This document shows positions 8,174-41,136 of a stretch of DNA of 64,000 nt, one piece after another; within the stretch, counting starts at the first letter, position 1, and each line of letters opens with the position of its first letter. Origin of the DNA: Amoebophrya sp. A120 (taxonomy: Eukaryota; Protista; Dinoflagellata); assembly GCA_905178155.1 (NCBI GenBank), contig CAJINV010000008.1:1116001-1180000 (forward strand), given 5' to 3'. The position numbers and the translations under genes are program-made. Under the pieces are notes generated by a model, which was not told the origin of the DNA, searched no databases, and was given only the letters and a program-made list of their open reading frames with translations.

Positions 8174-10063
8174 ATGTCGCTGACGGTCCGACAGGCTCGG
8201 CAGCAGGCTCCTGCGCTGTACAATGTGCTGCAGGAGAAAGGAAAGAACCTTGACGACACCGATGAAATCATTAAGTTCATCAAGCCTTTGCTTCGACAAA
8301 ACCAGCTGAAGCTTGACCAACTCGGCAGTAAGATCAGGCTAATGGACTCGGACAAAAATAGTTTAAAGGCCACCCTGAACCAACTCGACGACGCAACGAC
8401 GGAATTCGAATCACTGTACGTCCACAAGCTGGCGCTCCTGATCTCAAACCTGCACTCAATAGCGGAAAAAATCGGCAGTACGCAATCGCTGACAAACTCC
8501 ATCATTCTGGAGATTCCCCATCCGTACTTCATTTTCAGTGTTGTTTAAGTTTATTTCACATAGGTACGATTACGAAGTTGAAGTAAAGACTGACGTGACC
8601 ATGGCGAGACCTTTGTGTTACAGGCACGTTGTTCTCGACTGTTTACGACGGTGCCACTGTTATGTGTTTTGTTGACTAGAGAAGTAAGCACTTGCTGCAT
8701 TTGACGAAACCTTTGGTCGAACGCAGGTATTTTCAAGTTCTAGCGCGCGACTACCAACTTCAGTTGGAAAGGCTGAAACACTCGATCGACGCCTGTGAGA
8801 CATCACTATGAAATGTAAAAATGTCTGGGTCTGGAAACTTGTGATGCTGGGTGGCGTCTCATGATGAGGCTACGAATACTGGCTGAGCATGACAAGTTTC
8901 TGAGCTCCTAGCTGTTGCCTATTCTGCATGACAAACCGCGGCTCTGCATCACAGAAAAACGGGGCTCTTGGGTAACGTGCATGACAGATTTAAGAGTCAT
9001 GCCAGACAAGCACGACAAACTCAAACTCAAACATGAATTCTTCCAGACCCAGACATTTTTGCAGTTCATAATCACTTGTTGGTTACCAAAGGGAAAGACA
9101 GGAGGCGCTGGCAGTGAACGAATTCCAAGAAAGCGCTGTTACGGTACATTGATTCATTTTTTTACCGTTGCGTGGTTTACTGCGATGAGTGCATACTTAA
9201 CCATAACCATGATAGAAAAGTACAGGAAGTGGAAATTATTGAGATCGAAGTCGAACTACTTCTATTGGCTTGCACAGCTTCGAAATTCTGTACCACACTC
9301 GACACGACAGGGCCGAAAAATCGAAGTTGCGTTACGTGCTAACTACGCTCAGTTCCGGTCCATTGCGGGAGAGCTACTAAAGCTCGAGGAGCGTATGGAA
9401 GAGCTGAAGCAAGCCGCGCAAGTCCAGAAAAATATCAACCTGCGAAATCTGGTTCTCGAAACCGGTACCTCTTCCGTAAGCGCAACTTCCATGACCAACT
9501 ATTTTGGCAACAACGGGGTTGCAGCGAACATGCTAGGAGGCAGTTTGGGCGTTGGGCAACAACCAGGTGGTGCCGGCGCATTTGCCCAGCAACCAGCTGG
9601 AACCGCTGCCCAGCCCGCCATTGGTGGTGGTATGTTCGGCGGGCAAAGCAATGCAAGTCTTTTTGGGCAACCAGGAGCACAAACACAGCCTGCAGCTACG
9701 GGTGGAGGTTTATTTGGAACGCAACCACAGCAGCCAGCGACCGGCGGTGGGTTGTTTGGAAACACGCAACCGCAAAACACCTCCACGGGTGGTGGCCTCT
9801 TCGGTAGCACCACCGCACAACAACCAGCGAACACAGGCGGCGGCTTGTTCGGAAGCACGCAGCCAGCCGCACAAAATACTGGCGGAGGACTGTTCGGCGG
9901 TCAACCGGCGCAGCCACAAAACACAGGTGGAGGATTGTTCGGGGGCCAACCAGCACAAAATACCGGCGGAGGATTGTTCGGTAGTCAGCCAGCACCGGCA
10001 CAAAACACTGGTGGAGGGCTCTTCGGCAACAGCGCCGGTGGCAGCATTTTCGGGGGCAGATAG
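8174..10063 (+). CDS. FG nucleoporin, Nup58/Nup49-like; exons 8174-8523, 8727-8806, 9076-9143, 9311-10063
   Basis: After removing GT-AG introns 8524-8726 and 9144-9310 and the TIR element 8807-9075, the protein reads [40 protein letters not shown]...[33 protein letters not shown] (Nup58-type coiled coil). C-terminal GGGLFG repeats follow. Confidence 0.75.
8807..9070. mobile_element. Introner-like MITE, family A (subfamily A1), in the nucleoporin CDS
   Basis: 30-bp TIR TATGAAATGTAAAAATGTCTGGGTCTGGAA / TTCCAGACCCAGACATTTTTGCAGTTCATA. TSD ATCAC at 8802-8806 and 9071-9075. Removal gives ...CETS|LVGYQ. Confidence 0.93.
9690..10055 (+). repeat. Coding tandem repeat encoding GGGLFG-(Q/P/A/N/T)n FG units
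   Basis: About 8 units of ggcgg(a/t)gg(a/c)(c/t)tgttcgg separated by cagccagc-rich spacers. Confidence 0.85.
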
Positions 10064-10874
10064 CTACTTACCCAAGCCGTCCTACTTGACGTCATGATTC
10101 ACGATGTCGGGCAGTTTCATACAACTACTTGCTAACAAAAATAGACAAGATCTCGGTCACGACATGTACGCACGACACAATGCTGACTTACCCACGCAAC
10201 AGCATATACAATTTCTTGCCAACAGAGGGGGAGCAGGCTGCCACACCTCCGAAACCCACAAGAAACGCAGGCTTTAAATTGAGTCTGTGCTAATGTTGTT
10301 CCCAGGGTTACTTTCGCGCCTCGAGACGCCATGGAAGTTGTTGTAATATCACCGCACAAATTGTGCCTACGTGTAGTCGTCCTCGTCCTTTCGCTTTGTT
10401 TATTCGCCCAACAATCGTACGAAGCCAATCCAAATGTTGATGAGTCAGGCAGTCCTCCTTCATCGTGCCTCTCTCCGTTCGTTCAGCTTGCTCGATGTGT
10501 GCGTGTCGTGTGGTTGTGGCGTTACCTAGAAGGTGCTCACAAAGTAGGTACACGGTTAATGCAATCTCGTTCTCCACCATCAGCATCACATCCGCGTTTT
10601 TCTCGTCGTCGTTCTCATCCTTTGTCAGCACCTCGAAATGTTATCCACTCCTCTGTGCCTGCGCGGGCACGGCTCTAGCGGTTCTGAAATCAAACAAATG
10701 AAAACTCTAGCCGTCAAGGTCAAGCTCAACAGCCCACACTTGTTTCTAGATACTTAAGTTGTATATGTTTTCTGAGTTTTCACTTTCTGATGATTCTTGT
10801 CAGGCCAGCTCCATGGCAGGCACCCTCCTCGAGTAGCATATGAAGCACAAAAAGAATAAAACCAGAAAGAAAAA

Positions 10875-13800
10875 GTGAAAAATTCGTTTTTTCAAGTAGA
10901 TTGTCGAACATCAATCTTGCACCCATTTGCAATGGTATTTCGGTATCACTATCTTTGCTTCGTCGAGCACATCTGGATGTTGACAAGAAGAGGAAGCGTC
11001 TCGTCAGTCTTTTTCTTCGTCGTTAGATCTAGTACGTTCATTGATGTGTTGTTTGCGCTTGCGGTCGGAACTGTGTCATCTTCAATGAACAAGAGCCGTA
11101 TTGTCGGTGCCGACAATAATGAAAATGCAGATATCAACCTCACGCTCACGCGTAGAAGTTTCCTCGAGAAGAAGAAGTCGAGGGCGAAGGTCCTGCGTCG
11201 AGTTCGGCGTACTACAAAAAAATGTAGTGGTGACGCTGAAGATGAATATGAAACCGATAAGAAGAACACAACGACCGTTACAAGTACGACGACACAGAGT
11301 AACCGCGCACCAGACACCAGCTCCGCGGGGGCCGCCAGCACAGTTACCCCAACTGTCACGCCGACGCCAGGTCTTCTCCCCGAGCTCGCGTTGGGAACGC
11401 GCATCGCCATCGATGAGTGCAGCGGGGAAGCGATATCCGGCACCAATCCCTGCGTCGTGTTCCTCAACTACGTTTCCTTCTCCCTGGAGGCCTGCGAGAC
11501 CTACAACCCGAATCGCTTCACGTTGAAGGCCTTTCGCACCGAAAACCGCCAAACGGACATCGCGGAGCAAACGAGTGTCAAGTTTTTGCTTTACGACAGC
11601 GTCTTGTGGAATCAGTTCAGCTTTGGAATCCAAGAGAACTCCTGGTACTGGCGAGCCGATCCAGCGGACCCGGGTTTTAACCAGGTGTCGAAGTCCCCCC
11701 CACTGAATCCCGACAATTGCGGCAACCAGCTCCATTTTGTTTCCCAGTCCTCTGGGACGACGTTTGCTGCCGATAACAGAAGCCAACCTCCTCCTCCTGA
11801 TTTGCGAGCGGAGCTGCGACGGTCCTTGGTCGATGATAGTGGGCCGGAGCGAGCGCCGGACTGCAGACGGGTGCTGAATTTCCGGGTAGATTCGACATCC
11901 ACCGCGGAAGACGGACTGCTCTACGTGCTTGTGGAGCGGAAGACGCCGGAAGAGCAAAATGCCCCGACAAAGAACTGTGTAGGATATCTTACAAGGGAAA
12001 ACGGGTAATTGAAACGGGATAGCGACTTTTCCAAAACTTTTACTTTGACTTTTGGCAAAGTCGCTATTTTGATCGTCGGCAATTCATGCTTTGCGACAAT
12101 TGTTTGGACCGTGCTGCCTTTTGCTGGTAAGTCCGCACTTTGGGAGTGGCAGAGCATGAAAGGGCGGCACCTCTTCGCCGCGGCGTGTGCCCGCCAGCTG
12201 CCTGCCATTTTGATCGACGCCTCCAAGCAGGCTGCGGGAAATGCCACCCGCCGCGCATCGGACGGGCAGCGCCTCCGTGGTCGGTTGTTCGCGATTATTC
12301 GCGAGCGCTGTGGGGCCCTGTGCGCATTTTGTGCACCTTTTGAAGTGGTGCGCGGGCGCTGGCCTTTGGCCTTTCAGTATTCGCCCGGATGTTGATCGCC
12401 GCCTCGCGCTTCGGAAATGCCGGGGCGCGTCGGCCCTCTTCGCCCTGAGCGCCTTTTAAATAAGCAATGGCACTGGCTGCCAGGGCCCGAATGGGCGCGC
12501 CGCCCCGCCGCGGTGCCTTGGATGGCACGCCGGCCGCGCGCGGTCCTACGTACCTTTAGCCCCCTACATTCTGGCCCGCCGCTTGGCCATTCTTACAAAA
12601 TAGAGGCCGTCGCGCCCCGGTATTCTGTATCCTGCCCGCCTTTCCGCGGTTACGCGACGCGACCGAAGCGCGCGCCAAAGAAAGGCGCCCCCCTTTTGCA
12701 ATCAACGGGCAGAGGCGGCTCCTCCGCTCGTCTCGCTAGCGGTGGCAGAAGTGTCAAGGGCCTGCGGTCGGGGGGCCACCCCGATGGCCGGCGCGTGATA
12801 TGGGTCTGTGGCGCGTTGTGGTGGCGCCACCTGTCTATTTCTGTTGCCCGTCTATTCTGCTTCGTCTGTTTGAACGAGAGAAGCAGAGAGGCAGCATACC
12901 ATGCGGTCCGACGTCGGACCGCATGGTATGGCGCGCGATGGTGGGCCGACCTCTCGCGCCAGGCCGTCCGTGCGTGCGGCGGGCGTCGCGATGTGTGGCC
13001 GACCTCTGCCGGTTGGGTGGGCTTCCCCGGTGGGGTGTTCTTTGGTTCAGGAAATGGATAACGCAACTCCCCCGGGTGGCCCGCCCCACAAGCGAGCCGG
13101 CGGGCGGGGGCCCCGTGGCCCCTCTGGGTGGTATGTTGCTCTCCAGCACGAGCCTGTGTGCCTGGGTGGTTTGCCTTCTCTTGTAAGATGTACTGTAGCG
13201 ACCCCGTGGGCCGGCTCTATCTCTGCAGCTTTCCTGACAAGAACCGCCAAAAACGGCCGGGGGCTTGGGGCGTTGGCTCGCGTTTTTTCGCATGTTGAAG
13301 ATGAAAAAAACCCAAGCGCGCCCGCCTGTTTGCTTTTGTCTTCAATGAATGCAGTCGCCGGCGGGCTCAGTCGGCCGCCGGTAGAAAGACTGAAAAAATG
13401 ACGTAGGGGGGCCGGCAAACGTGGCACCCTTCTCAGGCGTCGGCCGCGTGGGATTCTGGCGCGCGACTTGGGGTGCCCAAAAGGGCGCCCCAAAAAACTC
13501 GCCCGAAGCCAGAACAGCGAAGCCGTAGGGCAGGGCCGCGAAACCGGGCGCGAATCGAAAGCGGCCGCCCTTGTGCCGGGTTCTCAGCGGGGGGCGCTAG
13601 CTTTGCAAAAGGCGCGGGCGCGAAAAATAACACACAACGCAAAAAAGAAGAAACGCGCCAAGCGCGCGAAGCCCGCCCGCATCCTATGGGCCCGCTTTTC
13701 CTTCGGTTTTTGGGCGCCCCCCGCGGTGCCCGGGTCGGCCCGATAGCGTCGGGGTTGGCTTTCGGGAAGGCGTTTTGGCAAGTTGCCCAACGCCTGCCAT

Positions 13801-16800
13801 TTTCCCCAACCGGCCGCCATACCGTGCGGCATAACCTTACCCGCCCCGGCACGGCGGGCCCAGAAAAAGCAAAAACGTGGCGCGGGCAGAGGTCGGCGGG
13901 CAAAGAAGCGGCGCCGGCCTCATTATCTCCGCCCCGGCGGCTATGTTTGGCGCATTGAAGTAGGGGCGCAGCACGCCGCGCGGCCCGGCCTCGCATGTTC
14001 CTGCGGGCCGCATGGCGTGGCGCGCTTCGCTGGAGCTGCCCGCGCCTCACGTTTTGGCGTGGCGCCTTTCTTTTGGCGCTAGCTAGAGGCCGCCCGGCCT
14101 GCCCCTTTCTCTTTCATATTCGCCGTCCCCCCGCACTTACATACAAAGCGCCGAGACCATGCCGCCGCTCCAGAGTGCTCCGCCTAGGTCGCGGCGGCCT
14201 ACCTTGCGCGGCCGGCTTTTCGCGAGTAGAAAGGGCGCCGGCGCAGCAGGGGCACGCGCGGGGCGCCCCTCACATCTTGCTGCGCCGGCGCGCGCAATAA
14301 GTTCGCCCAGGAGGCTCTGTCCCCATTTTCGGGGAGACCGCCTCAGCCATGTAAAAAAGGGGGGGGGCAGCAGGATTCTGCGCAAGCCTGGCGGATGCGC
14401 AGCCACGCCTTCAGGCTTTTCGGCTTTTGAGGGGGCGGCGAAATCTTCTGTCTGAGTGCCGAAAATCTGCCGAGAACTTGCCGAAAACTTTCCCCCGAAC
14501 TTTCCCGAAACTTTCCCGCTTCGGGATCATTTTCGGACCCGAAAACTTTTGGTTGACTTTTCAACTCCCGGTCTGTAACTTTTGGTCGACTTTTAAACGG
14601 GAGAATTTTTGGGGAAGGTTTCGCGGAAGGTTTTCGCCGACTTTTCGGGAAAGTCCGGGGGAAAGTTTTCGGCAAGTTCTCGGCAAAGTTTCCGGCAGAG
14701 TTTTCGGTAGAGGGTCGGAAAAGTTTCGCCGCCCGGCGCCTGCCCTTTGTTCCTGCCCGCCAGCCGGGCCGCCCTCGGGCGGCTGCCTTGCGCCCGAAAA
14801 GAGGCACAGCCTCCCGGCAGGCACGCCTGCGGTTATTGCGCACGTAGCCAGGCAAGCGGCCGGCTCCGCCCCGGCGGGCGGCCGGCGCTATGTTGTCGCA
14901 TGCGCCACCGGGCAGCGGATTCACGCCCCGGGGGCGCCGGTGCGCGTGTCGCTCGCTTGCTGCGAACCAAGAGAGGGCGCCCGGGCTTCGGCGGTTGCTA
15001 CCGACCCCCTGAACTTGGCGCGTTGCGCCGTTCGGGGCGCGTGCGGGGCATGCGCTCCGCGTACTCCACACTTGCGGCGGCGGGCTCTTGGGGGCCCGGG
15101 CGCCGCTGGAGTTGGCGGTGGTTTGCCCAAACCCATAGACGGAAGGAACACCCGGCCCGGCCGCGCCAGTCCTTCGCCCCCCCGCCCGCGACCGACCTAG
15201 ACCGGGGCCGGCCACAGTGTGCCGGCAGGCAACAGCCGCGCGGGCGTGGCGCCTGTGCACCGCCGGGCCCGGGCGGGGGAGGCGGGCTTTTGGGGTGCCG
15301 AAGCGATTCCGCCGCATCCGCCAGGCGCCCGCCGGCCGGAGCCGGCCTGCCTGGGGGCCTCCCACCCTCTGAGTGGGGGGGGCGCCTGCATGTTGGGCCC
15401 CGCCGGCCTGCCTGCGCGCCCGCCTGGAATACCGGGCGGCGCCGCCGCGGGTCTACTTTCTACGTGCCGGCGGCCCGATTGCCACCCATCGTTCGTCTCG
15501 CCCTTCGCTCGCCCTGCGCCCCACCCTGTCGGCCGGGATTGGGCGATCTGCTTCGTCTCTATCTGGTCAGCCGGGGCCTGTGCCTTTGCTGTTTCGCTTT
15601 TCCGACAAGCATACCGTGCGGTCCGACGTCGGACCGCATGGCACGCTCGACACCGTTTCGGGCGGGGCGAGCCATATTGGGGCGCCGGGCGATGTGGTTG
15701 GTGCACGGGCGGAACTGCGCCCCTGCGTGCGACGTAGGGGAGGGGACGTCGTGGGGGCTTACTTACCCTCGGGGCCTGTTTGCTTGCTACGTGTGGGGCT
15801 GCCGGACGGTAAGCCGCTGCTGCGTGTGCCCAGCGTGCCAAATATAGCCTCCGTGGCGGAGGTGGTGAGGTCGGTGCCGCTGGCTGCCTTGCCCGCCGAC
15901 CGTTGCCCTGGCCAGCCACTGCGTGCTTTTTCTGGGCCCACCGTGCCGCTTTTGGTATGGCCATGCCGCGTGGCTTGGCCGTCTTTTGGAGAGCATGGCA
16001 GTTCTTTGCCAAATTTTCAGAACCCCTGCCCGAAAGCCAGCCCCGGCGGCATGGGGCCGATCCGGGCGCCGCGGTGGAGCGCCCTAAAACCGAAGGCAAA
16101 CCGGGCCCATGGCATGGGGATTGGCCTCGCGCGCTTGGCGCGCTTTTGCTTTTCTGTGTTTTTTCTTTGCGCGCCGGCACCCTTTGCAAAGCTTCCGCCG
16201 CATAGAAACCGGCGAAAAGGTGGGGGCCGCTTTCGCGGCCGGCCAAATGCTCCGAACCAACGAAGCCCCGCCCGGCCCTGTCGTGCGGCTTCGCTTTTCT
16301 GATTTGCCGCGAGTTTTTTGGGGCGCTCTTTTGCGCGCCCCAAATCGCCAGAACCCCACGCGGCCGGCGCCTCAGGGGGGTGCCCCTTTTCTTTGTCGGC
16401 CCCCCTGCGTCGTTAGTATTATCAGTCGGCGACCGATAGAGCCCGGCGCCGGCGGTTCGTTGAAGTCAAACAAAGCCCAACAGGCTGGCGCGCTTTGATC
16501 TTCTTCATGTGGAAGAGCGCGAAACAGCAGCACACACCGCCGGCAGCTTTTGGCCGGTGGTTGCTTTGCATTCAGAAAGCTGCCAGGGTCGGGCCGTTTC
16601 GCGGTGGCGGCCCGCCGGCGGCAGGAGGCGCGGGCTGGCGCCGCGATTCCGGGTGTTTGTGAGGCTTGGGCGCGCGCGTTTTTTGGCGAGGGCGCGCGTT
16701 GCCGGGTGCCCGGTTGCGTCGGGTTTAGGGTCTGGCGGACCGGCCCCCTTCCCTGTGTCGGTAGCCCTCCTCCTAGTCAGTTCCCGGGTAGGCCTTCCGG

Positions 16801-17264
16801 GCCTGGGGGGCGGGTGGGTGCGATGGGCGGTCATGGCCTTTTTCTTTAGGGCGCCCGCGCCGGCAGCCGTTGGCTGCGTGCGGTCGGCGGGTACCCGGCG
16901 CGCGCGCACGCTTCGGCGGGTGGAAAGGCGGTCGCTCGGGCTTCGCCGATCACCCGCGGGACAAGAGGAGGCGTCGGCGCCCAAGACCTCGCAGGCGCCC
17001 CTGTTCTGTCGCTTGGAGTATCTTCACTGCGTTTTTTCGTTCTGACTCGCTTTATCAAATCGTTTTCAATACCCTGAAATCCTGAAAAGTCAAATGAAAA
17101 GTTTTGGAAAAGTTCGAATCGCCCGCCAATTAGCCGTTTTCCCTTGTAAATATCAAGGACTAGAAAACGGGTCAACTGACGTGAACGCAAATGCCACACT
17201 GGCAGAGATGCGGCCAGTGTCGCCGATCACTCTCGCTTCTATCACGCCTGCACCGACAAGCTGA
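10875..17264 (+). CDS. Hypothetical protein with hydrophobic N-terminus, interrupted by a 5.2 kb TIR element; exons about 10875-11984 and 17160-17264 (true start uncertain)
   Basis: The ORF runs into the left TIR at ...PTKNCVG. After the right TIR and repeated AGGA the same frame continues LENGSTDVNANATLAEMRPVSPITLASITPAPTS-stop (TGA 17262-17264). Confidence 0.55.
12895..12930. repeat. Perfect 36-bp palindrome; diverged second copy at 15610-15645
   Basis: CATACCATGCGGTCCGAC|GTCGGACCGCATGGTATG; copy 2 is CATACCGTGCGGTCCGACGTCGGACCGCATGGCACG. Confidence 0.95.
13244..16560. repeat. Diverged long inverted repeat of about 0.7 kb: arm 1 about 13244-13975, arm 2 about 15820-16560
   Basis: Colinear reverse-complement blocks, e.g. 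GGGCCCAGAAAAAGCA vs TGCTTTTTCTGGGCCC, AAACGCGCCAAGCGCGCGA vs TCGCGCGCTTGGCGCGCTTT, GCGCCCCAAAAAACTCGC vs GCGAGTTTTTTGGGGCGC. Confidence 0.85.
14468..14685. repeat. Central inverted repeat (43-bp arms, 1 mismatch) embedded in 11-12-nt CCGAAAACTTT-like microrepeats
   Basis: TGCCGAGAACTTGCCGAAAACTTTCCCCCGAACTTTCCCGAAA (14468-14510) pairs with 14643-14685. Confidence 0.9.
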
Positions 17265-18520
17265 GGATGAGGTCGTGCTTAGGCTTACTCTTTTTTTTAT
17301 TTCAGTAATTACAATTGCGTCGTGGTCGTGTCCGAGGGCGAGGTACAATCTCAATCTTCTCAAAGTCCGCACCATCTTCCGTGTTCAGCTTCATGGATAC
17401 ATCGAACGGAGGAAAATCGTCATCACAGGGCGCTCGGTGTTCACCGAAATGGAGGCTGTTCAGTCGAAGTAGAAGCTTTTGGCTGTGTATGTTGTGAAGA
17501 TTTTTTTTTATCATTTTTGGCTAAGGAAACGTCGCTCTTGTTCAAACATCGCTCTTCTTGTCGCGTATCGTTTATCATTTGATCGCTGAGTCTTGCTCTT
17601 GTTTTGCTGTGACGACTTTTTCATTGATTGGAGGTCAGTGTGAAAGTTCAGGTCCCTTCGCTGTGTTGTGCCGAGAGAGGACGATGTCAATGTCGATTTC
17701 CGACATCATGTCCGAGCGAGAACTGAGCAAAGATCTGATCGTCGTGAATCGCCAGGTTGTTGTAGTTCCGTCTCAGTATGATCCGGGCGGCAAACAAAAA
17801 TCTGGCAGCAGGCCCGTCATTGGTGCTGCAAGTAACTCAGAAATAAATTCGCTCGTCGAACATGCTTTGTTGCTTACGAGCTGGTATCGCCGCTAGTCAT
17901 AGGCTTTTGAGATGAATTTTCGTGGACCAATATTGTTCCTACACATTTTTTACTAGAAACAGGTGCGAAACGCAAACGCCCGCGCTGCGCGCTAATTCGT
18001 TGCCTCTAGGTTGTAGCGCAACTGAAGCAAATGCAAATGCAAAGCATGTTTGGTGTAGCCTCCTCTCTTCTTGCGGTATGATTTTTACTTGAGAAAGAGG
18101 AAGATCGCGTTCTCGACCTGCACTGCTTATTCCACACTTGGTCCCCCTGTGGAACTTCTTTCAGTGAGCTCCTCTTGGTGAAGCTCTTAGTTTCAGCGCA
18201 TGTTCAAGCGGCTTCTCTTGGTATGAAGATCGATGATGAACTGCCTTCACAGCCAGAGACTTTCCTTGCGACGAAAAAGATGTCTTTTCACTTTCTCGAC
18301 TTTAGTGCGATGGAAAATATATGATATCTTGCGAAGTTAAGTATAATAGAGCGTCGTAATCAAGAAAGAAAGTCGTGGCTTTGTTTTTATGACATCAAAA
18401 TTTTGTTTTTGCTGGAAGATATCAATCCTACATAAAAAAAGAAGAACTAGAGGCTTCTTGCGTTAGAAGCGCCGTGGAAGATCTCCTTGCCTCCACGACC
18501 ATCAGGGACAAAGAAAGAAA

Positions 18521-25341: not shown

Positions 25342-25974
25342 AGATGACGAGCCTCGAAGAGCTCTTGTGAAAGTACCCTATAAACAGCGACTGACGACGC
25401 ATACCGTGCGCGGGCCCCTCCAGCAGGCCCCACAGGGATGTACGACGACTATTTGTGTCGTCGACGTGAGGGCTAGTTTGGCTTCCCAGTACACGTAGAA
25501 TTCTATAATTCAATGGTGTGCTCATGCTCAAAAGTCAAAATAGAACGCCATAATTCTGTCCACAGCTCCTGCTGCGTTTCACCGCATCTTCCCAGTCGAC
25601 GAAACTATAATTTGAGTAAAGTGGTAGTGGTCCAGGGCCACACAAAGCGATAGTGTGCCGCTTTTTTCAATTGTGGAGTTGGTGCTAGTATTCATCCAAA
25701 TGAACTACCACGCAGATGAATGTCAAACCACAGTCGTTTTTTCATACACCAAAAGCAAAACCAAGATTCAGTGTTCTACAAACTAAAGACAGTCACTTTT
25801 TTCTTTTCTGGTTTTCCGGAAGATGGAGGGACTGGACTCGCGGTCGACACTGTCTACTTCGCTCTGCTTGATTCAGGTCCCGGCATCGGATGAAATTTAT
25901 ATTTTGGGCAGAGCAAAAGACGGAAACGTCGGTGACTGATAATTTTCTTGTTCCGTTGTAGTCCATGACAACTT

Positions 25975-29121: not shown

Positions 29122-30544
29122 AGCAAGAGGCCTTTCGCAGCTGCTCTGCGGCTGCAGCTGTGTTGTCAACCTCGGACTTTCGCGAAGAAAATGTAGTTCT
29201 AAGCACTTGGCTCTGCTAGCACATGGGAGGGTAAGCTGTGCGATTAGTCTTGGCATGCGGCTTGGACATGGGTCGCCTTGACGATTGGTGCTAGTCCTGT
29301 TGATGAAGTCTCTCTGTACAAAAGCAAAACCACTGTAAAAAAAATGAAAAACAAAAGTAGAAAGTATCGCATGAACATAGCTCTCGTTCCCAATAATTCC
29401 AATGGATTTATTTTTATCGATTTCAATAATTTTGGTTTCTGCTCCTGTTTCGATATGATGAGATTTGGTTTCCTTGCGCACGCAGGCCGCATTTGGAATG
29501 GAAAGAAAGAACAAAAGGACTGCGAAACATCAAGACACAACAGTCTGAAGCAACGCAAAGGAAGATGTAAATCTAAATGTAATGTTAAGAAAATGAAGAC
29601 AAACCCATGTATAAACAGATGATGTAATTCCAATCCTACTAAACTATGACCGCCTCCGCCAGCAAGACTACGCTGCAAGTGCATTGACATTGAGTCTCCC
29701 TTAGAGTCTTGTAGACCACGTGCAATCTCATTCCTGCTTTATTTGTTTCCATGTCGCTTTTTTGGTAGGAGGTTCGCCGTACGTGTCGGTCAGACAGCGC
29801 AATTTGCACAATTGCATGTGGTTTCAAACCTGCGCTTTCCTTGTATGTTGTAATTATCACAACTTATCAGGTAAGTACAGTAGCGAGAGGTTAAGTTATC
29901 ATGCCAGACAAATCACAGAAACAGAGAAAAAGAACTACTTAAAACACCGACCAGCAGACGAGGGAGAGAAAGTGGAGAGAGTCAAAAAGAAAGCAATTTC
30001 AAACCAATACATAGGTCTAGGTTGGTTAACTTCATCGTGCACGAATGTGACTCCCTGGTGCATGTTCTCGAGCAGTTTGGTTCTCGTCTGTTTCTGGCGT
30101 TGTCAAATGTTGGAATGTTGATTCCAAAATTTCCTCCTCTAGCTTAATGTTGCAAAGACAGGTCCTCCCTCTTCCACCAAGTGGATTCACTCACTGTACA
30201 CCCGAAAGTGATTTGTCGCTACTGTTGAAGTAGTACAGCTATAAAAGTAGTTCGATGGATTAATATACAATAGGTACTTCTAGTAGTTCTAGTTGTAGTA
30301 TAGACGTTGAAGATCATTGTTCGCGCATCCGGCTACTTCCAACCGAACCTGCGTTCTTGAGTCTGCTTATTATTGAGGGCGTTTCGTTTCCGAACATTAA
30401 TAGCCGACCCGGCCCGGGGGGTTTATTTTGAAGCAGGTAAGAAGCGACGCGGCGTCGACGTGTCGTGTCACACCAGAGTATATTTCATGCTGGTTCTACT
30501 TCTACTTACGTCCCGGTCGTCCCTCTAAATCTATCACATCAATC

Positions 30545-33500
30545 ATGTCGAATTGGTTCGACCGCGCCAAGGCGTGGACGAGCGAGGCCGCCGTGAAGGT
30601 AACGGAAGCGACGCAGAAGGGTTACGAAAAGACGAAAGATGCGACGATCAAGGCGAAGGAAATTGCCAAGCAAAAGCTGGGCCGCATGGAGACGGCCCAG
30701 GAGCTGACGAAGATTTTGGAGGAGAAGGCACGGAACGCGGTGACGCTGATATCAAATGTAAAAATGTCTGGGTCTGGAAGAATGCAAGTTTGTCATGCTT
30801 GTCTGGCATGACTCTTAAATCTGTCATGCGCATTACCAAAGAGCCCCACTTTTCTGTCATGCAGAGACGTAGTTTGTCATGCAGATTAGGCAACACCTAG
30901 AAGCTCAGAAACTTGTCATGCTGAGCCAGCAATTGTGGCCTCCTCATGATACGCCGCACAGCATCACAAGTTTCCAGCAGACCCAGACATTTTTGCATTT
31001 GATAGCTGACCCAGATCGCGGACTTGCACCGCTCCTGGATCTCGTCGATGAACCGGAAGGACGGGCCGAGCTACATTTTGCCCTCCTACGCCTGGGAGGT
31101 ATCAACTGCAAAAATGTCCGGGTCTGGAAGATTCTGAGACTTTGACTTGTCATGTACGTTTTGCATGAGCCATGAGGTCTGGAATGCGAGGCCTAGCATG
31201 ACAGATTCTCTGGGGTCTCTATCATGCCTTTCCTGCGTGAGAAACTCCCGCGCAATTTGGTCAAAAGCGGACAGCTTTTGGTACTCACGCAACACAGATT
31301 TTTGCATCATTCGGATTTAGCATGACAAGTTCTAATCTTCCAGACCCAGACATTTTTGCATTTGATAAGAGGAAAACTTGAACAACCCGGACGCCGATGT
31401 CGTGGAGCGCCAGTTGTCGACGGATGCTGCGGTCTATCAAATGTAAAAATGTCTAGGTCTGGAAGATTACAACTTGTCATGCTGTTTTTGGACTCTAAAA
31501 AAATTTGTATTGCATGGCCGGCAAGATGGGTGCAATTTGTGCTTACACGGAGAGGGCATTCCTCATGCGGAAGGTGCATCAGGAAGCCCTCTAAAAGTCT
31601 GCGATGCTAGGTCATGCATTACAAACATCATGGGTCATGAGAAATATGCATGACAAATCTCGCATTCTTCTAGACCCAGACACTTTTGCAATTCATACGG
31701 TCGTGGCGGAGAGTCCAGGGGAACAAACCTCGACCACCACATCATCCGGGGACACGAGCAGTTCGAAAGAAACGACGCCCGCAGGAGGGGGAAAGGAAAA
31801 GGAAAACAAATCGATATTTTCAAAAATCTCCTCCGTCGTCAGCAAACGGGCTGGCTCGCACGAGGCAATCATGGCGGAACGAGAAGCGGCCGCAAAGGAT
31901 CCAAACAAACGAATTCTGTCGTTCAAACAGGTGCAGCTTGTTTTCCTGACAAGTAGTTTTCACCAGTGAATGGGAGTTGTATCGCCAGTTGCTTCAATAT
32001 CAATGCCGTCACTACAACTTCTCATGCTACTACTGGTGCGTAATAATTTCCACGCATGCTGCTTTTGTGCTCGTCAAGAGTGAATTTTTTGAATTTGATT
32101 GGTTACATTCATTCCAGTTCACTTGGGCTAGTGGTGATGCCGAACACGACATCATCTCAACTCCAAGGTATTCCTGCGGTCCCGGGCATTGGAGATCACG
32201 ATGGAAACTATTTTGTGTGACGAGTACATGCGGAAGCGCTTTGCGCCACCAACACCTGACGACCACAGCTCGCATTCGTTTTACTTCTACTCGTTGTTGC
32301 AAAACGCGCTGTCGTGTCCCCCGGAAATCTGGGGCGGGCTCTTGCGGACCGCCACGGAAGCAGAGCTCCTGACTGACTACCACATTCGATGGCTGTCAAG
32401 GCTGTTTGGCGTGCTGAAGATCGACTGGTTGGACGAGGTATTCCACAGCGAAAGGAAAGACATGGCAGTTCGGGCGGAGCAGCTACGAAACGAAATTCGC
32501 AGCGTCAAGACGGCACTGCCGAGCCTCACTGATCTCGAGATTGAAAAGCACCACAAGAAAAAAGTCACGGCGAGTCGCGACCTGGTACTATATTTATAAT
32601 TTTTTTCTTTTCAGCTGGACGAGAATTGATTCGGGGGAAATCAGATGGAAACGAGATTGAATGATGATAATCATTAATCAATTCGAAATAAGAACACGAC
32701 AGGGACACAGGGCCATCATCAAAGATGAGGACGGCCATCCTTTAACTTTATCTATGAATTGGAACAAGTTCTGTATGCAACATCCACAACGAGGAACAGC
32801 GAAAATAAGTATGAATATGAACAACTTTTCGCCAGGTCCAACTGTATAAAGGACTCCGAGTCAATATGGAGGAAGCTTTGAAGCATCGACAAGTGACGCT
32901 GCAAAAACGTGATGAGAACATGAAGAATCTCGAACTGGAAATGACGAACTACAAGACCGAGCTGGGTTCCACCACGGTGTCAAGTATGGAAACCCGGGAG
33001 AAGCTGACAAAAGAGCTTGCGGAAGCAGCGGAAGTGCTCAAGGTAGATCTGGAATCCATTGACAAAGACCGTCTCGCTGTCGACCAGGAAATCGAAGAGC
33101 TCGAAGTGCGCAAGAAGAACCTAAAACTGGAAATCGAGGAGGTAAAAAGTTGTAAGGGCACTGCGACTTCTACTTTCTTGAATCTTTTGAATCCACCGAT
33201 TTCCTTGCATGACTTGTCCTTGAGTTTGAGTAGCACGATCTTATTTCGTACCTACGTACTTGTTGAGTTCCATAGTTGTTTCCGATCGCCAGCCCGGCAG
33301 ACATAGTTTTTGCTATAGGTGAATACAACGACGACTTCAGGTGACGCAATTGCTGCTCATAGCGCGGCAGAAGCAGAAGCACTTCATGACCGAGCAGGAC
33401 CAGAAGCGAAACAACATGTACTCCGAAAAGAACAATTTCAAGCGTCAGATCTCCGAGAAGGAGCGGCTGGCCCTGGAGTGTGAAATTGGGGGCAAGGTGC

Positions 33501-34762
33501 TCGAGGAGATCCACAAGATCGTGGAGGTCACAGAGAAGCAAATGTCGGCGTCGCTCGGAAAACAAATTTCGGAGCTGGGGAAGAAGCGCGACCAATTTGA
33601 CCAGCACTTTGTCGAGGTGCTACGCGATCATTGCCGGTACGAGGACGACAGGCTTGTGTCCATCGGGGAAATCGCAAAGGTTAGCTGCAGCCGGCTCATA
33701 AAGCTGAACGATGGGGACGAGACGCTGGTGATGCAGGAAACTGCCAAAGCCGCCGGCGCTGCAACGGGCGATGGTACTTTTCGTATAGCTGCGCATTTAG
33801 ATTTAGTCACCTTTGGCACCTGCGGCCGGACTTCTTCACCTTTTGTAGCTTGTTTGTACCGTCGTAGCTTGATTTTACTGGCGTTTCATCGTGTTGCTTC
33901 GCGTTGTCGTTTCTCCGGAAAAAACACAAGTGATGTCTTTGCTTTCTACAGGATCTTCGGCAGCCCCGCAGCAACTGACGCGAGCAGAATTTCTGGTGCG
34001 CGAGCGGCATGTCTTCACAAAGGCAACGCACGACCTCGAGTTGGTTTGGACGGACATTATGAGCTTCAAAAAACAGCACGAGGACATTATCGCTTCCAGT
34101 CCAGTTTTGAAGGACCTGGTTTCCAGGATGGAAACAAAATACCGACAAATCAAACAGCATCTTTCGCCTGGTATATTGATGAAGAAGAGCTATCCCTTGT
34201 CGTCATTTTGTGAGGTATCTCCGAGAGCAAAAATAATCAAAATGTTGAAGCTGATGGCTCTTTTTTAAAAGAAGCGTTGTTACAACCAAGAAAATCAAGT
34301 CAATGTCGCGTACAAATTTCAGGTTTGGAAATGATGGTCCAAGCCAGCATGCAAAGTCCGGTGGGCACACCGGACGCGGGCTCCGTTGGATCTATCCAGC
34401 CTACCGAGGCCCAAGTGGAGGCTATGCCCCCGGTTCAGACGCACACGCAGGTGCAGCAAGCTCCACCACCGCCCCCACCCGCACCTCCGGTGGTTGTGGA
34501 AAAGAAGGAAGCACCACCTGCTCCTGCCGCGCCGCCGGCCCCGGTTGTCGCAGCAGAAGCGAAAGAGCAGGACCCAGCTCCTCCAGTGGTTGTAAAACAA
34601 TCCAAACCGGAACCACCAGCAGCGCCGACGTCTCCGGTCGCTGCAAAAGTAGATGCCCCTCCGCCTGTCGACGACGTGGTCGATGCGGCTGTTACTGAGC
34701 CAACAAGCACAACTGCAGCTAAAACAGCCGAAGGCGAAGATGAGGATTTTGCCATTGCCTAA
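30545..34762 (+). CDS. Multi-exon coiled-coil hypothetical protein with Pro/Ala-rich C-terminus; contains three TIR elements
   Basis: Starts MSNWFDRAKAWTSEAAVK. After removing the elements it reads ...NAVTL|TQIADLHRSW...YAWE|ENLNNPDAD...DAAV|VAESPGEQ. Further GT-AG introns follow (e.g. 31931-32168, 32585-32835); ends ...EDFAIA-stop at 34762. Confidence 0.75.
30750..31004. mobile_element. Introner-like MITE, family A (A1, opposite orientation to 8807-9070)
   Basis: TIR TATCAAATGTAAAAATGTCTGGGTCTG / CAGACCCAGACATTTTTGCATTTGATA. TSD GCTGA at 30745-30749 and 31005-31009. The interior is a diverged reverse complement of the 8807 element. Confidence 0.93.
31100..31367. mobile_element. Introner-like MITE, family A (A2)
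   Basis: TIR TATCAACTGCAAAAATGTCCGGGTCTGGAAGAT / ATCTTCCAGACCCAGACATTTTTGCATTTGATA. TSD GGAGG / AGAGG (4 of 5 match). Interior similar to 40411-40675. Confidence 0.92.
31435..31697. mobile_element. Introner-like MITE, family A (A3)
   Basis: TIR TATCAAATGTAAAAATGTCTAGGTCTGGAAGA / TCTTCTAGACCCAGACACTTTTGCAATTCATA. TSD CGGTC at 31430-31434 and 31698-31702. Confidence 0.92.
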
Positions 34763-36150
34763 TCAGCGGTTTTTTCCAATATCACCTGTACACTACTAAT
34801 TGTAATTTCAATCGAATACTTTTTTACTTACAAATACGAGCTGACGCAAGAGCACCGTGTATCCAAATCCCCGTCGGAGCGACTACTTCCAGCATTGTTG
34901 TACTTCCTCTCCTTTCAGATACGACGCACTTCAATGGTGCCCCCGGGATAAACTACTGTTGTTTAGATGATTTCTTCGATATTATATACGCAAGGCATTC
35001 TACCTCTACGTCTACCCCACCTACGAGGACCACGACGGCAGTGGCATCTGAACTTTTTGCTCCCCAATGGTTAAATAATGTCATGCGCTGTGGATGTGGT
35101 GGTTATGGTTTCCTAACTTCGCCGCGCCTTGATGGCATTTCCTGAACGTCAGAAACGAAAGCGATTGCATGCACCGGCCGTGAGAATCGTCGTGATTCAC
35201 CGGCCACTTTTGACATAACGACGAAATATTATTCTGCAACGAAGAGGATGATGATCACAATTATCGAAATCATGATAGCGGGCATTCTTATCCTTTTCTG
35301 GAGTGAAGATTGAAGACGTGCGCTTTTTGGTTTGTTCTTATGTGGTGTGACGAACAAATTGCAACTGTTTCCCGTGTTCTGTATGCGCTTTTCTTACTAT
35401 TTCATTTAATCTTGACCTTGAGGCCTTGCTCTCGTTCAAGCAAGATGCTTCAGGAAGCGCCATCGTGTGGTTTCGATTTTGGTCTTCGAGCCCAGGCGCT
35501 CGGAATTGAAATCGCAGGAGAGACCGGCATGATTTATCAGAACAAGGTCGTTATCGTCGCGAATGTCTTTCTTGAGAGAGAGGTAGAGAGTCGTAGCTCG
35601 ACGGAGCTCGTGTGCGTGGGGCCTTACAAATATCGTCCCTGCTCTGCCTTTGGTTCGTGACGTCTTTTTCGTTGTCATGGTCTGGAGGACATCGGCGGGG
35701 GATGCGTCGCTGTAGTGTCGATTTCGGAGGGATGGTAGCGAATTCGTTGTTGACCGCGATGCCTGGTCCTGTGCGGGCATGATGTATTGCTTTTCCACGT
35801 CTGCAACTTTCATCAAGTTGCTGTGAACGAGAAGCACATCTAGCAGGTCGAGTTCAGATATTGATATTATTATAAGCAAGTGAAGATGCTGATGTAGTAG
35901 TATTTGTAGATGACGAACTTGTCGACACGACCGTGATGAAACCTTGACATCAAGACAAAACCCTCTGCGGCGGGAGCCAGAGCTGCCCTACCACTTCTGG
36001 AATAGGCTTGTAATGATGTACAGTCGGAGAACGACGTAGGTCTGGGGGCCCGCTCCTGATCGTCTACACGACTGAGTTTTTCAATAAGTGGGTGCGGTCG
36101 TCGTGGAGATTAACTTGAACACTGTCCTCTCGTCCAGCACGCTTGCCAAG

Positions 36151-39100
36151 ATGGCACCGTCTGTTCCGCGGGAAGTGCAGAAATGGATGCAGATGCTCGC
36201 GCTGACGCATACCATCAAGGACGCAAAATTCGACTTGGCGAATGGGTACCTGATCGCGCAGATGTTCCAGCGGTACTACCCGAAGGACTGCTCTTTGTAC
36301 CAATACGAAAACGGTCAGTCCATTCACTGTAGATCCAACAACTGGGAGATGCTCTTCCGGCTCTTCAAGAAACTCAAATTTCCCTGCACTCGGGAAGAGT
36401 TCGACGAGGTGCTGCATCACGTGGACGACGCCGCCGTTTTGTTCCTGTGCAAAGTGTACGAGTTTCTCACAGGAAAGAAGGTTCTTTTTGTTTTTCTTGT
36501 TTCGTTTTTACTTTGTTTTATGCCGATGCTTTTCATTCGTCAAAGTCAAGTAAGAAGTAAAGCGCTTAAGTTCTGATGTCAGACAGTTTGCTTTACTTTT
36601 AGCTTTGACTTGTTCTCTCGTGAAATACGTTTTACGCGGAGAGAACATGATGTGCACAAACTCAGGTGGTGCTCTTTGGCAGTCCACAGAAACCAACGGA
36701 GCCGAGATTTGCGAAGCATACTGCCTCTTGGAAGCTGAAAGATGCGCATCTGGAGCGAATAGAGGACAACATTCACCGCACTATAAGACGAATCCAGACT
36801 CTGGAGCGGCACAACGACGATCTTGCCAGGGATCGCATAGGACCGGACGGTGCAGGTAAATGTAAATCTAAATTACTTATGCTCAACGCATGCAACGAAA
36901 ACGACGCTTGCAAGCTCAAACATTTTTGGTGCTGTATTTTTTGCCGTGAGCTGGTGTGAAGTAACGACGCTGATGCTTACTTAGCTGCTTTCAAAGTGAA
37001 TGCATTCTTATTTCTAATTCTAGGTGTTCGTCGCTTCATTGCGCTGGCCAAGGCACACGACACGGCCGACAACGACAAGCTAAGGTCGTTGAAATCCAAG
37101 ACGGAGACGGAAGTCACGGACACCCAAGGCCCAGTACGAGAGCAGACGGTGAATGCCATGCTCTCGAAAACCGCGGGCATGCAGAGCATGAACAGCGTGA
37201 GCAGTAACCAAACGACAAGACCAATCAAGAGTCAACAGACACACACGGCTTCGGTCATTGCCAATATCGGCTTTCACCAGCCGACAGGTATTTTTTCATG
37301 CACGATAGATAGATGCGGTTCATCTTCATACAGCTTGTACTTTTTGCTTTATGACGTTTTTGCAGACAATATCGGAAGATATAGATTTTCGAAACTCGTA
37401 CGTTTTTGCTCGTGGCTCGAACGGAGCCATTGGCGAACATTTTTTTTTCGTTGGTGCTTCTGCTTTCAACCTCTAGCTACGCGCCATGCATTTCCTTTTC
37501 ATTCAGGTACAATAAAAGCCACTCTGGACATCATAAAGCCACTGATTCTCGGGGAACTAGACAAGCAGACGTTGGCTCAGGCTGCGGATTCGGAGGAACT
37601 TGACCCAGTTATGGCCTTTATCGAGGCAACGCTGCGGGAAGCGCTCCCCGAGCCTTTGATCTTGAAGCTTTTCAAGGAGAAGTTGATAGCGCGCGCATCT
37701 CTCTTTATCGACAGTCTGTTGAAAAGCTCGGTGGAATTTTGGAAGACCTGGTCGGCCTTTCTCCCACTTCTCAACGAGCTACCTGCAAGAAGCAAAGTTT
37801 TCGAATCCGTATAACTCTATTCAAGCAATTTCGACCCTTGTATTTCTTTTTGATTTTTTTTTCCTTCGTCTATCATGTAAAAGTAAAAAAATCTAAATGT
37901 AAATGCGTTTTTGCTTGTGACGCTGCATTTCTTGGCTACAAAACACGACAGGCGATGGACTTCTGGAAGCGGGTCGGAGAGCTTTGCAAAAACCGGGACG
38001 AAGCGCTCACGCAAAAGTGCATGCTTAACGTGTGTCTGCCCTCCCTCGTGCAGCTTATGCACGCGGATGCGACGAAGCGAGAGACGTGCTGTCAGCTTGT
38101 CTACACCTTCTTAACGGGCGAGGTCACACACGCGGATCAGAGCGGGTTAAGCTTACCCCGCGCGGTAGCTCGTTTGCAGGCGCTGAAAACCGTGAAGGAT
38201 CTTCTGTTCGAAAAATTTGGCAACAAGTTCGTCACGAGCTACGTTCCGTGCCTAGCGTGCTTCGTGCACTGGGACTGCTCCCCGAGTCAGCCGCTGACCG
38301 ACCATTTGCTTGACTTGTATCTGTATTACGCCCTGCTTGCGCTGCAAATGCCCCAGCCACGACTGCGAATGGCGGGGCTCACACTCCTGACCAGCATCGC
38401 CGGAAGCGGGTACAGCCACCTCATATTTGTTTCATACGTATTTTCTTCGTCGCCGGCTCGTTTCTTTTCTCAATATGAATATGAATCATGCGAGCCTGAG
38501 GCTAGAGTGGTTCACAAACTAACCAGCGCTCACAGTGAGTGCGAGCACAAGACGAGCCGAAAAATTTTTGAAGCAATTCGCTTATTTCCGCTCTACTTGT
38601 CCTTGTGCACGATGATCCCCATTAGGCGGTGAGATTCTTCCACTCCAAAATAAAAAATAATCGAAGGTCGTCCGATGCGGTCTTGTCTCTGGTCGCATCG
38701 TTGAAGGGCTTGATGTACGACTCCTGGTGGGAGGTTCAGGCAGGTTTGTTGCTGCTGGTTTCCACACTCTTGCTGAAGTACTTCCCCGGGTACACCACGC
38801 AGCCCCTTTCCCCGCAAAACACGACCGCGGTGGAGGATCTGTTGAAGATTGTGAAGCACGTCGTGAACCCGCAGACCGCCAGCAAGAATGTGCTCCAGGT
38901 CGGCTTGAGCTATTTCAGCCGCAACCTGCACCAACTGGTGCTGCCGCCTACAATATCAAATGTAAAAGTGTCTGGGTCTGGAAGAATGCAAGATTTGTCA
39001 TGCATATTTCTCATGACCCATAATGCCTGTAATGCTTGAACTAGCATCGCAGACTTTTAGAAGGCTTCCTGATGCACCTTCCGCATGAGAAATGGCCCGT

Positions 39101-41136
39101 CTGTGTAGCAAAAACTGTACCCATTTTGCTGGTCATGCAATACAATTTTTTTTAGAGTCCAAAAACAGCATGACAAGTTCCAATCTTCCAGACCCAGACA
39201 TTTTTACATGTGATATACAACTGCACCACCGAAGGACGAGGACGGCGGGGAGGCACCGCAAACGAACGCCGCTATTGTGAGGAAAAATCCCCCCTCCCCA
39301 TATTCAAACAGGAAATTTGTGATGCTGATTTGTGACCACAAATCATGTTGTCATGCTAGAAGGGAAAAGACGCAGACTGTAGTGCTGGCTGGCGTAAGAA
39401 GGCCTTGCATCTTCAGCATGACAGGAGGCAACTGGAAGTGGGAAACAGCATCACAAATTGCCTGCAATTCAGGCCGCAAGTGCGTCCCTTGGCCTTCTAG
39501 CAACACAAGCCGATTTGGGGAAGCAAATCCAGCATCACAAATTTCCTGTTCGATATGGGGAGGGGGGATTTTTCCTCTTGATAGCCGCCGTGAAGTCTTT
39601 CTGCATGCTTTACGCAAACGCACTGACCAGCCAGCAGGCGGCCTTCCGTGGGAGGCTGCTGCCCCCAGAGTGCCAGGCCGGCGGGGGATCGGAGCAGGCC
39701 GGCGGCGCCGAGAGCAGCTCCATCTCGCAGCACCAGCCGGAAAAGGTGCAGTACGTGCTGGGAGAAAACACCGTCTTTTTTCAGGAGTACCCGCTGTTCC
39801 CGCTTGCGGCCGCATCCGGGGGCGGATCCTTATCCACAGAAAAAAACCCATCCACATCCATTTTTTGCATGGCAAACAGGTGACTTGATACGTGTTTTGC
39901 ATGACAAATTGGATGTGAGTGGGTTTTTTTCTGTGGATAATCCTCGCCCAGTTCCTCCAGTGCGAAGAACACGACGAGCCGGCTTTGCGTGGAACTCGCG
40001 GAGGCCGTGTGCGCGGTCGCGAACGGCAGTGGGGCCGCCAAGGAAGAGAGCGAAGTCGACCCGGTGGATATCCTGAGTAAAAACGTACCCAAACCAGAGT
40101 CAGGATGAGGATTTTGCAACACAAACCTAGGAGTTTTGTGAGTCACGCATGACAAGTTGGACTATGCAGTGTAGTGCAGGTTAGCAAGTGCAGCCGCGTC
40201 ACAGATTCATCTGCTCATCCTGTTCACAGCGTCACAAATTCCAAAACAGGATTGGAAATGGCTCTCATGGGGATGCGCATTACAAGTCTTCCTGTCTTTG
40301 CAATTCTGCATTACAACTCTGGTGTGGGTATGTTTTTACTCAGGATAGTGGAAAACGCCGCGGCCATACTCCACGTCCCGCTGCTGCCGCTCGACCGACT
40401 GGAAGCTGGGTATCAAACGCAAAAATGTCTGGGTCTGGAAGAGTGTAGACTTGTCATGCAGGTTTTCCATGACTCGTGGGGTCTGGAATGCGGGACCTAG
40501 CATGACAGAGTCTGTGAGGTCTCTGCCATGCCTATCCTGCGTGAGAAACTCCCTCTAAACATGGTCGACAGTAAGTGGACAGCTTTTGGCACTCATGCAG
40601 CACAGATTTCTGCATTATTCAGATTTAGCATGACAAGTTGCAATCTTCCAGACCCAGACATTTTTGCAATCCATACTGGGCACTTGGAAACCATCTACGC
40701 ACTGGTAAAGCGCAAAATACTCGACAACAACGGCCTGCCGGCGCAGAGCTGGGTCCCGGTCTACGACCTCTTGAAAAAGTATCTTTTCGTGGCGCTACTG
40801 GAGCCGGAGAACCACGCACTGGCCGCAAAAGTCCTGCGGGAGACCTTCTACGCACCGGAGGCGGGTCAAACCCGCCAATTGTTCATTCGCAATAGCACAG
40901 AGACTTTTGTCTCCATGTATGGCTTGTGTTTGGCAAACGATGCCGCCGACCCCGAGGCGGAGGACGGCGGGCCGTCGGCAGCGCTCGTCTCGGAAGCCAC
41001 TCTGTGCGAATTCGTGAAGTCCCTCATCAGCGAAGATTCCGAGCTCAAGTCGGCTTTCAAAAACGTCTTCCGCTACTACAAAGAGCAAAAGCGTGACGAG
41101 TTTGATCGCTCCATGCTCGCACCGCTGGCCTCGTAG
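36151..41136 (+). CDS. SPEF1/SPATA4-type calponin-homology (CH_2) domain flagellar protein with long helical C-terminus; about 11 exons, five TIR elements
   Basis: VPREVQKWMQMLAL...FDLANGYLIAQMFQRYYP...YENGQSIHCRSNNWEMLFRLFKK. The frame is continuous through five element excisions (PPT|TAPP, TNAA|VKSF, GGS|SPSS, DPVE|NAAA, EAG|HLET) to TAG at 41136. One junction near 38430-38670 was not resolved. Confidence 0.8.
38954..39215. mobile_element. Introner-like MITE, family A (A3, opposite orientation to 31435-31697)
   Basis: TIR TATCAAATGTAAAAGTGTCTGGGTCTGGAAGA / TCTTCCAGACCCAGACATTTTTACATGTGATA. TSD TACAA at 38949-38953 and 39216-39220. Confidence 0.93.
39273..39583. mobile_element. Introner-like MITE, family B
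   Basis: About 55-bp TIR TATTGTGAGGAAAAATCCCCCCTCCCCATATTCAAACAGGAAATTTGTGATGCTG / CAGCATCACAAATTTCCTGTTCGATATGGGGAGGGGGGATTTTTCCTCTTGATA. TSD GCCGC at 39268-39272 and 39584-39588. Confidence 0.92.
39831..39939. mobile_element. Introner-like MITE, family C (109 bp, almost entirely a hairpin)
   Basis: TIR TATCCACAGAAAAAAACCCA...ACATCCA / TGGATGT...TGGGTTTTTTTCTGTGGATA. TSD ATCCT at 39826-39830 and 39940-39944. Confidence 0.92.
40069..40347. mobile_element. Introner-like MITE, family D
   Basis: TIR TATCCTGAGTAAAAACGTACCCAAACCAGAGT / ACTCTGGTGTGGGTATGTTTTTACTCAGGATA. TSD GTGGA at 40064-40068 and 40348-40352. Confidence 0.92.
40411..40675. mobile_element. Introner-like MITE, family A (A2)
   Basis: TIR TATCAAACGCAAAAATGTCTGGGTCTGGAAGA / TCTTCCAGACCCAGACATTTTTGCAATCCATA. 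TSD CTGGG at 40406-40410 and 40676-40680. Confidence 0.93.

Follow-up and report, generated by a model that had tools for sequence, protein, structure and literature searches.

Introner elements of Amoebophrya sp. A120 occur in both orientations within exons, consistent with a removal defined by their ends

We analyzed a 64,000-nucleotide (nt) stretch of the genome of the dinoflagellate Amoebophrya sp. A120 (positions 1,116,001 to 1,180,000 of contig CAJINV010000008.1, assembly GCA_905178155.1; hereafter, the window) for introner elements, a system already described for this organism by Farhat 2021 (PMC7789003; this and the other papers cited here are quoted from the available parts of their text). 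The elements interrupt exons in either orientation, and the exact loss of an element plus 5 nt would restore the host proteins. The interior of the element is apparently not read directionally. Balanced orientation, unconstrained targets and exact removal in the RPB1 gene would together narrow the signal for removal to the terminal ~30 nt of the element. With about even confidence, and on the strength of sequence comparison, we hold that the elements undergo excision at the RNA level that is defined by their ends and is likely carried out by a remodelled U2-type spliceosome.

The window contains six copies of one family, which we call family 0, and five elements of other families. Four of the family 0 copies, at 8807-9070, 30750-31004, 31435-31697 and 38954-39215, start with TAT, end with ATA, have an inverted arm of 27-32 nt, and are flanked by a perfect 5-nt duplication (ATCAC, GCTGA, CGGTC and TACAA, respectively). 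The first and last of these lie in what we designate orientation A, and the two between them lie in orientation B. The remaining family 0 copies, at 31100-31367 (with one mismatch in its duplication) and 40411-40675 (duplication CTGGG), are both in orientation A. TAT...ATA ends and a 5-nt duplication are likewise found for the other-family elements at 39273-39583 (cluster 6), 39831-39939 (a short introner) and 40069-40347 (cluster 2). The element at 43908-44160 has weaker arms and a perfect 5-nt duplication, and the one at 45294-45457, which is 78% identical to a cluster 1 copy, has a duplication with 3 mismatches in 5 nt. Terminal inverted repeats (TIRs), a target-site duplication (TSD) of fixed length, a short non-coding interior and a high copy number are the features of miniature inverted-repeat transposable elements (MITEs), and the elements are non-autonomous DNA-transposon copies that insert into exons either way round. 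A loose scan of the window for TAT...ATA ends returned 21 candidates compared with 9-17 per shuffle by chance, and stricter limits were therefore used, under which chance candidates with an intact duplicate numbered 2 and 0 in two shuffles. Two candidates were dropped, one at 44765-45198, which has no duplicate and sits in an open frame, and one at 32591-32817, which has no duplicate. A search of Rfam returned no matches, the TIR pattern did not occur in the viral contigs that were scanned, and no transposase was found among the 48 window frames scanned.

The initial annotation had described 30750-31004 and 38954-39215 as reverse complements of 8807-9070 and 31435-31697, respectively, and had taken this to mean that the element occurs in both orientations. 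The coordinates are exact and the alignments bear this out. After trimming 35 nt from each end, the interiors of the 8807 and 30750 copies are 80% identical as reverse complements and 52% identical in the forward direction, while those of the 31435 and 38954 copies are 89% and 58% identical, respectively. Each interior is just 52-60% identical to its own reverse complement, indicating that the interiors are truly asymmetric. The four copies had also been assigned to four + strand hosts. The + strand assignment holds, but the hosts are three genes, with the 30750 and 31435 copies sharing one.

When metagenome contigs were scanned for the arm pattern, at least 145 loci (536 kb) were obtained, all on contigs with the prefix JACKZZ01, which belong to a second public assembly. 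These loci do not overlap the window beyond the length of an element, the contigs may derive from the same or another strain, and the nearest neighbors of the window copies among them are 85-96% identical. The copy and cluster counts given below (432, 318, 310, 286, 181 and 152 copies) are those among the matches listed plus the window. Of 432 candidates, 318 had duplicates that were identical or differed at a single position, and 310 of these, including 9 from the window, had at least 17 of 25 arm positions paired. To call the host strand, we trained a codon model on genes of the window and summed it over 5 kb, which gave a call for 181 copies and led to 129 being dropped; this model assigned 110 of 130 held-out 150-nt pieces to the right strand. 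As a further check that left out three overlapping loci, Pfam was searched with 94 of 100 listed frames, and the matches, found in 7 of 47 loci, lay on the called strand in all 7.

Relative to the host strand, family 0 is represented by 42 copies in orientation A and 39 in orientation B (81 of 152 copies called, 6 of them from the window; 95% interval, 0.40-0.63), and by 38 and 37, respectively, when the window is left out. This sense and antisense count, which the initial annotation had proposed as a check, thus supports its claim for the window and the JACKZZ01 matches combined. All nine clusters with at least four strand-called copies show both orientations, and so do 16 of the 21 loci with at least two called family 0 copies, the latter being independent of the strand call. 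The duplication is exactly 5 nt long in 212 of 286 strong copies, with lengths of 3, 4, 6, 7 and 8 nt in 7, 3, 0, 1 and 1 copies, respectively. One mismatch is present in 54 of 318 duplicates (about one in six), and the target sequence at the 5-bp duplication is random. Among the individual variants are copies with flanking direct repeats of 8 nt and 7 nt in place of 5 nt (L059:5329-5608 and L143:76-330, respectively) and a family 0-like copy with the ends GAT...ATC in place of TAT...ATA (L063:945-1211).

The host genes of the window, all on the + strand, were compared with and without their elements. The gene at 8174-10063, a predicted gene model for an FG-repeat nucleoporin, forms a single frame, of 416 codons, solely when the 8807 element and 5 nt are removed; a shift of 1 or 2 nt, retention of the element, or use of an internal GT..AG pair leads to an early stop. 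The gene at 36151-41136 encodes a CH_2-domain protein and carries five introners in its last coding block. Its sequence minus the five elements exactly equals the last 405 residues of the deposited A120 protein P0001, and each of 20 tested shifts of 1 or 2 nt stops early. A protein with the label Amoebophrya sp. A120 matches one of its exons, at 38662-38952, with 100% identity and was the sole hit among 286 candidates. The gene at 30545-34762, which encodes a conserved protein with no Pfam match and with orthologues P0002-P0006, contains three copies in orientations B, A and B. Exact removal of the first of these, the 30750 copy, whose junction is conserved across three orthologues, gives a gapless alignment to all three orthologues tested and a higher score than any of the 17 in-frame G[TC]-AG alternatives; an A120 protein for this gene was not among the orthologues returned. 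For the other B copy, at 31435, the junction lies in an unconserved linker, and exact removal is supported by the frame alone, with in-frame canonical alternatives being available. A fourth gene, at 42771-46635, has no Pfam match and a frame of 1145 codons once the 43908 and 45294 elements are removed. When the frames on the two flanks were called independently of one another, they agreed in phase for 36 of the 38 copies that gave a clear result (139 were unclear), and this was so for both orientations.

The same comparison can be made in a gene with many distant homologues. Locus L066 encodes RPB1, which is presumably single-copy and essential here, and it contains six exonic copies, with family 0 in orientations A and B and cluster 6 in both orientations. 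We fetched 150 RPB1 homologues and counted those that span each junction. The B copy at 5001-5262 lies within the codon of yeast residue 831, which we take to be part of the bridge helix, such that the exons end at residue 830 and resume at 832-833; when this copy is removed exactly, 106 of 110 spanning homologues align without a gap. The same holds for 113 of 114 homologues with the B copy at 6024-6995, located after residue 1068, and for 31 of 39 with the A copy at 722-983. For these three copies, in-frame G[TC]-AG alternatives outscore exact removal in at most 2 of 110, 1 of 114 and 5 of 39 homologues, respectively. The other three exonic copies are gapless in 5 of 8, 70 of 111 and 42 of 56 homologues, and for the last of these a canonical option that is one residue shorter scores higher in 11 of 56. 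The 6024-6995 copy has grown to 972 nt through a second insertion, which indicates that the interior is flexible. This insertion has an apparent duplication of ~18 nt, like non-LTR (long terminal repeat) retro-insertions, and another family 0 copy, at L068:8961-9456, has also been enlarged by a second insertion; both second insertions end in A runs. In addition, a short piece of RPB1 exon and the intron that follows it are present twice at about 980-2140 of L066, which reflects either a duplication or an assembly artefact.

The letters at the borders do not conform to a splice site consensus. An exact GT-AG register is available for 14 of the 181 strand-called copies (8 in the antisense control), and an exact G[TCA]-AG register for 22 (16 in the control). 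The 31100 copy is the only one in the window with an exact GT-AG register; it alone is informative about the splice register from mismatches between duplicates, and its right-hand duplicate would create a stop. G precedes TAT in 58 of 181 copies and follows ATA in 55, which matches the background G frequency of 0.30 and indicates that the target does not supply the splice sites. Elements of both orientations fold a terminal stem, with z values of -7.25 and -7.33.

Given that interior orientation, length and content all vary, the ends are presumably what is read. In the end-defined excision that we favor, the machine would read the ends alone, and inverted ends would show it identical terminal letters in either orientation. 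TAT and the letter that precedes it may serve as a relaxed GTAT-like donor, while the ~30-bp stem would bring the ends of the element together. Cutting would take place at a fixed 5-nt offset from this stem, independently of GT, of AG, of an interior branch point and of the identity of the two duplicates. Excision at the level of RNA, the role of the stem and the catalyst are the parts of this scheme that we infer, and the duplication itself is probably a by-product of insertion. The initial annotation had proposed that recognition relies on the symmetric TIR stem and the TSD and not on internal directional signals. Its view that interior orientation is irrelevant stands, given the orientation counts for family 0 and for the nine clusters, the presence of both orientations in one RPB1 gene, and the rarity of an exact GT-AG register. 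The role that it gave to stem and duplication is not supported, in that inverted ends of 30 nt show the same first and last 30 nt either way, the stem carries no signal of selection as RNA (see below), and the duplication need not stay intact, as the 45294-45457 element lies in the 1145-codon frame with 3 of 5 positions mismatched. Moreover, a symmetric stem and directional signals are not true alternatives, because symmetric ends can carry directional signals. For the same reason, the spliceosome is still compatible with insertion in both directions, since its directional signals may lie in the ends.

Several observations count against the reading that we favor. In the stems of the 181 copies, G-U oppositions (161) are no more frequent than A-C oppositions (160), arm positions 4, 5 and 7, beside the junction, pair no better than independent arms do, and TAT is about as conserved as the inner arm positions, not clearly more so; the arms therefore look like DNA-transposon ends without a clear mark of selection at the RNA level. 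The elements yielded no candidate for a branch point. Restoration of the frame alone is no proof of splicing, as it is expected of any exon insertion, and the results presented here fit the spliceosome or another enzyme alike. Of 19 clear mismatches between duplicates, 11 fall at third codon positions, compared with 213 of 589 simulated ones (p 0.024 against one third), and the hosts are therefore probably under selection after insertion; however, with 19 cases this excess is weak (p 0.18 against 0.45). Arm positions 10 and 14 do covary (0.66 vs 0.50 and 0.84 vs 0.72, respectively), which may be due to descent or to pairing. The idea of a G-U wobble, based on the T that the six window copies have at position 10 of the 5' arm, was rejected on the 181 copies. 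As a separate observation, positions 4-10 of family 0 arms in the window and in loci L001-L145 diverge about fourfold faster than the interior (15.6% vs 3.9% in the 16 closest sister pairs), which may reflect end shuffling or end processing in transposition.

The main rival to end-defined spliceosomal excision is that a non-spliceosomal nuclease and a ligase remove the RNA at the TAT...ATA stem in a euglenid-like manner, with release of circles. We regard this as possible but doubtful. It accounts equally well for the anatomy of the elements, which display no GT, AG, target preference or required sense-strand interior motif; U1 was not found in A120 (PMC7789003), and in euglenid introns the termini pair, the spacing follows a rule and the products are circular (PMC11282704, PMC12501133). 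The lack of a G-U excess, the poor pairing at positions 4-7 and the absence of the euglenid CAG/CTG motif from family 0 arms speak against it, as does the retention of most spliceosome parts by A120 (PMC7789003), although canonical introns need those parts anyway. Stated in full, and as tentatively, this rival holds that a second, spliceosome-independent system of A120 would recognize any TAT...ATA inverted end and cut at a fixed offset of 5 nt, whatever the interior sequence, the orientation, the target sequence or the length of the element (109-972 nt seen). A different possibility is that the motif GCATGACAA acts on both strands as a directional signal such as a branch point, one for each orientation. 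This motif occurs at 13.0 per kb inside the elements compared with 1.4 per kb outside, peaks 30-45 nt from each end, and contains TGAC, which we take to resemble a branch consensus; the 8-mer CATGACAA is present in 25 of 31 clusters or singletons. However, sense and antisense copies are balanced (308 and 291, respectively), 19 of 181 elements have no sense copy, and the same is true of 6 of 9 cluster 2 copies in one orientation that nevertheless lie in open frames. An obligatory branch point at GCATGACAA is thus unsupported, since the sense copy is dispensable, and a role in transposase binding would fit equally well; we regard a directional role as unlikely. Among strand-biased k-mers within the elements, the best of 758 six-mers reached p 0.001, which is not significant after correction. 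GCATGACAA is common to most families despite their differing arms and is a candidate binding site for one shared mobiliser.

The other explanations appear still less probable. Loss of the TIR and the duplicate is the anatomy of precise transposon excision, and, with no pairing signal at the RNA level, one could suppose that the elements are excised from DNA before transcription. We consider this very unlikely: the elements are present in two genomic assemblies, we know of no germline-soma split in Amoebophrya, and Farhat 2021 (PMC7789003) calls introns from RNA sequencing (RNA-seq) and, in its available text, reports no putative transposase in A120. Just as improbable is that ordinary splicing uses cryptic GT/GC-AG sites close to the ends of the elements and leaves small in-frame changes in the protein. 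An in-frame GT-AG pair lies within 18 nt in 124 of 181 copies (104 in the antisense control), and 14 copies have the exact register noted above. On the other hand, in-frame pairs within 8 nt number 49 compared with 51 and 38 in the other phases, no in-frame excess is seen at 8, 12 or 18 nt, and the 38954, 39831 and 40411 elements have no such pair within 18 nt. The alternatives also put gaps in conserved stretches of RPB1 and of the 30545-34762 gene, and P0001 shows exact removal. The least credible explanation is that the hosts are dead or tolerant of insertions and that nothing is removed, for which it can be said that restoration of the frame is trivial for any insertion. RPB1 carries six exonic copies, flanking exons stay open, the mismatches in 54 of 318 duplicates suggest that the insertions are old enough for visible decay, and the published RNA-seq data (PMC7789003) support removal.

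According to Farhat 2021 (PMC7789003), A120 introners measure ~240-260 nt and have direct repeats of 3-5 nt, non-canonical borders and inverted repeat motifs in which TAT is followed by seven variable letters and a run of A; a hairpin was proposed for them, non-canonical introns of A120 have RNA-seq support, and U2, U4, U5 and U6, but not U1, were found. Family 0 conforms to TAT followed by seven variable letters and at least three A, whereas clusters 5, 7 and 8 have no A run, and we likewise find direct repeats at the borders and a repeated family with non-canonical borders (the 152 family 0 copies). At ~30 nt, the arms found here exceed the reported range of 8-20 nt. The available text and supplement text of that paper do not address how the elements are oriented with respect to the host, its figures may bear on register and orientation, and in a literature search that was mostly of open-access papers we found none that gives the orientation of Amoebophrya elements. 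There is no mention of it in the available parts of PMC11282704, PMC12501133, PMC12005148 or 10.1101/2025.08.15.670264. The introner matching in PMC9860276 permitted the opposite orientation, while PMC12130899, which includes A120 introners, demanded ends in the same orientation. Thus, two-way orientation in Amoebophrya is apparently an unreported constraint on a known system.

Introners that are TIR/TSD elements in either orientation have been described in Polarella glacialis and, by citation, Aureococcus, where they are spliceosomal and have canonical borders (10.1101/2020.10.14.339549). Those elements have G[TCA]-AG borders with sites recruited from constrained targets and, in the described classes, a bias to one orientation. 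The A120 elements differ from them in having unconstrained targets, non-canonical borders without recruitment of G[TCA]-AG sites, and balanced orientation. Like the A120 elements, euglenid nonconventional introns (PMC12501133, PMC11282704) have non-canonical borders, terminal pairing, TSD-like repeats, a proposed MITE origin and fixed spacing from the borders; they require CAG...CTG, and circles have been reported for them, whereas the A120 elements have TAT...ATA and a longer stem, with no CAG consensus at family 0 arm positions 1-10. In Fritillaria borealis, TIR-derived introns with non-GT-AG borders are reported to be U2-spliced (PMC11282704, 10.1101/2025.08.15.670264). The Fritillaria introns prefer AG-AC/AG-AT borders and a TAC exon context, and the A120 elements have no fixed border dinucleotide besides the letters of the TIR.

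Other features of the window include a gene for the splicing factor Prp18 at 5878-7515, with Prp18 and PRP4-like domains, and + strand frames for reverse transcriptase and RNase H at 48286-51497, which are likely part of a non-LTR retroelement. A GC-rich 5-kb region at 11980-17150 contains nested long inverted repeats (695 nt at 72% identity, with outer arms of ~70 nt at 82%); it has no Pfam or Rfam match, and a 133-nt piece of it matches L066/L067.

Amoebophrya has no detectable U1, and how it nevertheless disposes of non-canonical introns by the tens of thousands is an open question (PMC7789003), for which sister copies in opposite orientations within one gene provide paired natural test substrates. 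Excision that reads the ends alone and is otherwise blind to sequence would, if true, mean either that the splicing chemistry is new or that the spliceosome has been strongly rewired. Were the system instead independent of the spliceosome, every insertion would be harmless, which would explain the spread of the elements throughout the genome and would leave selection with no orientation bias on which to act.

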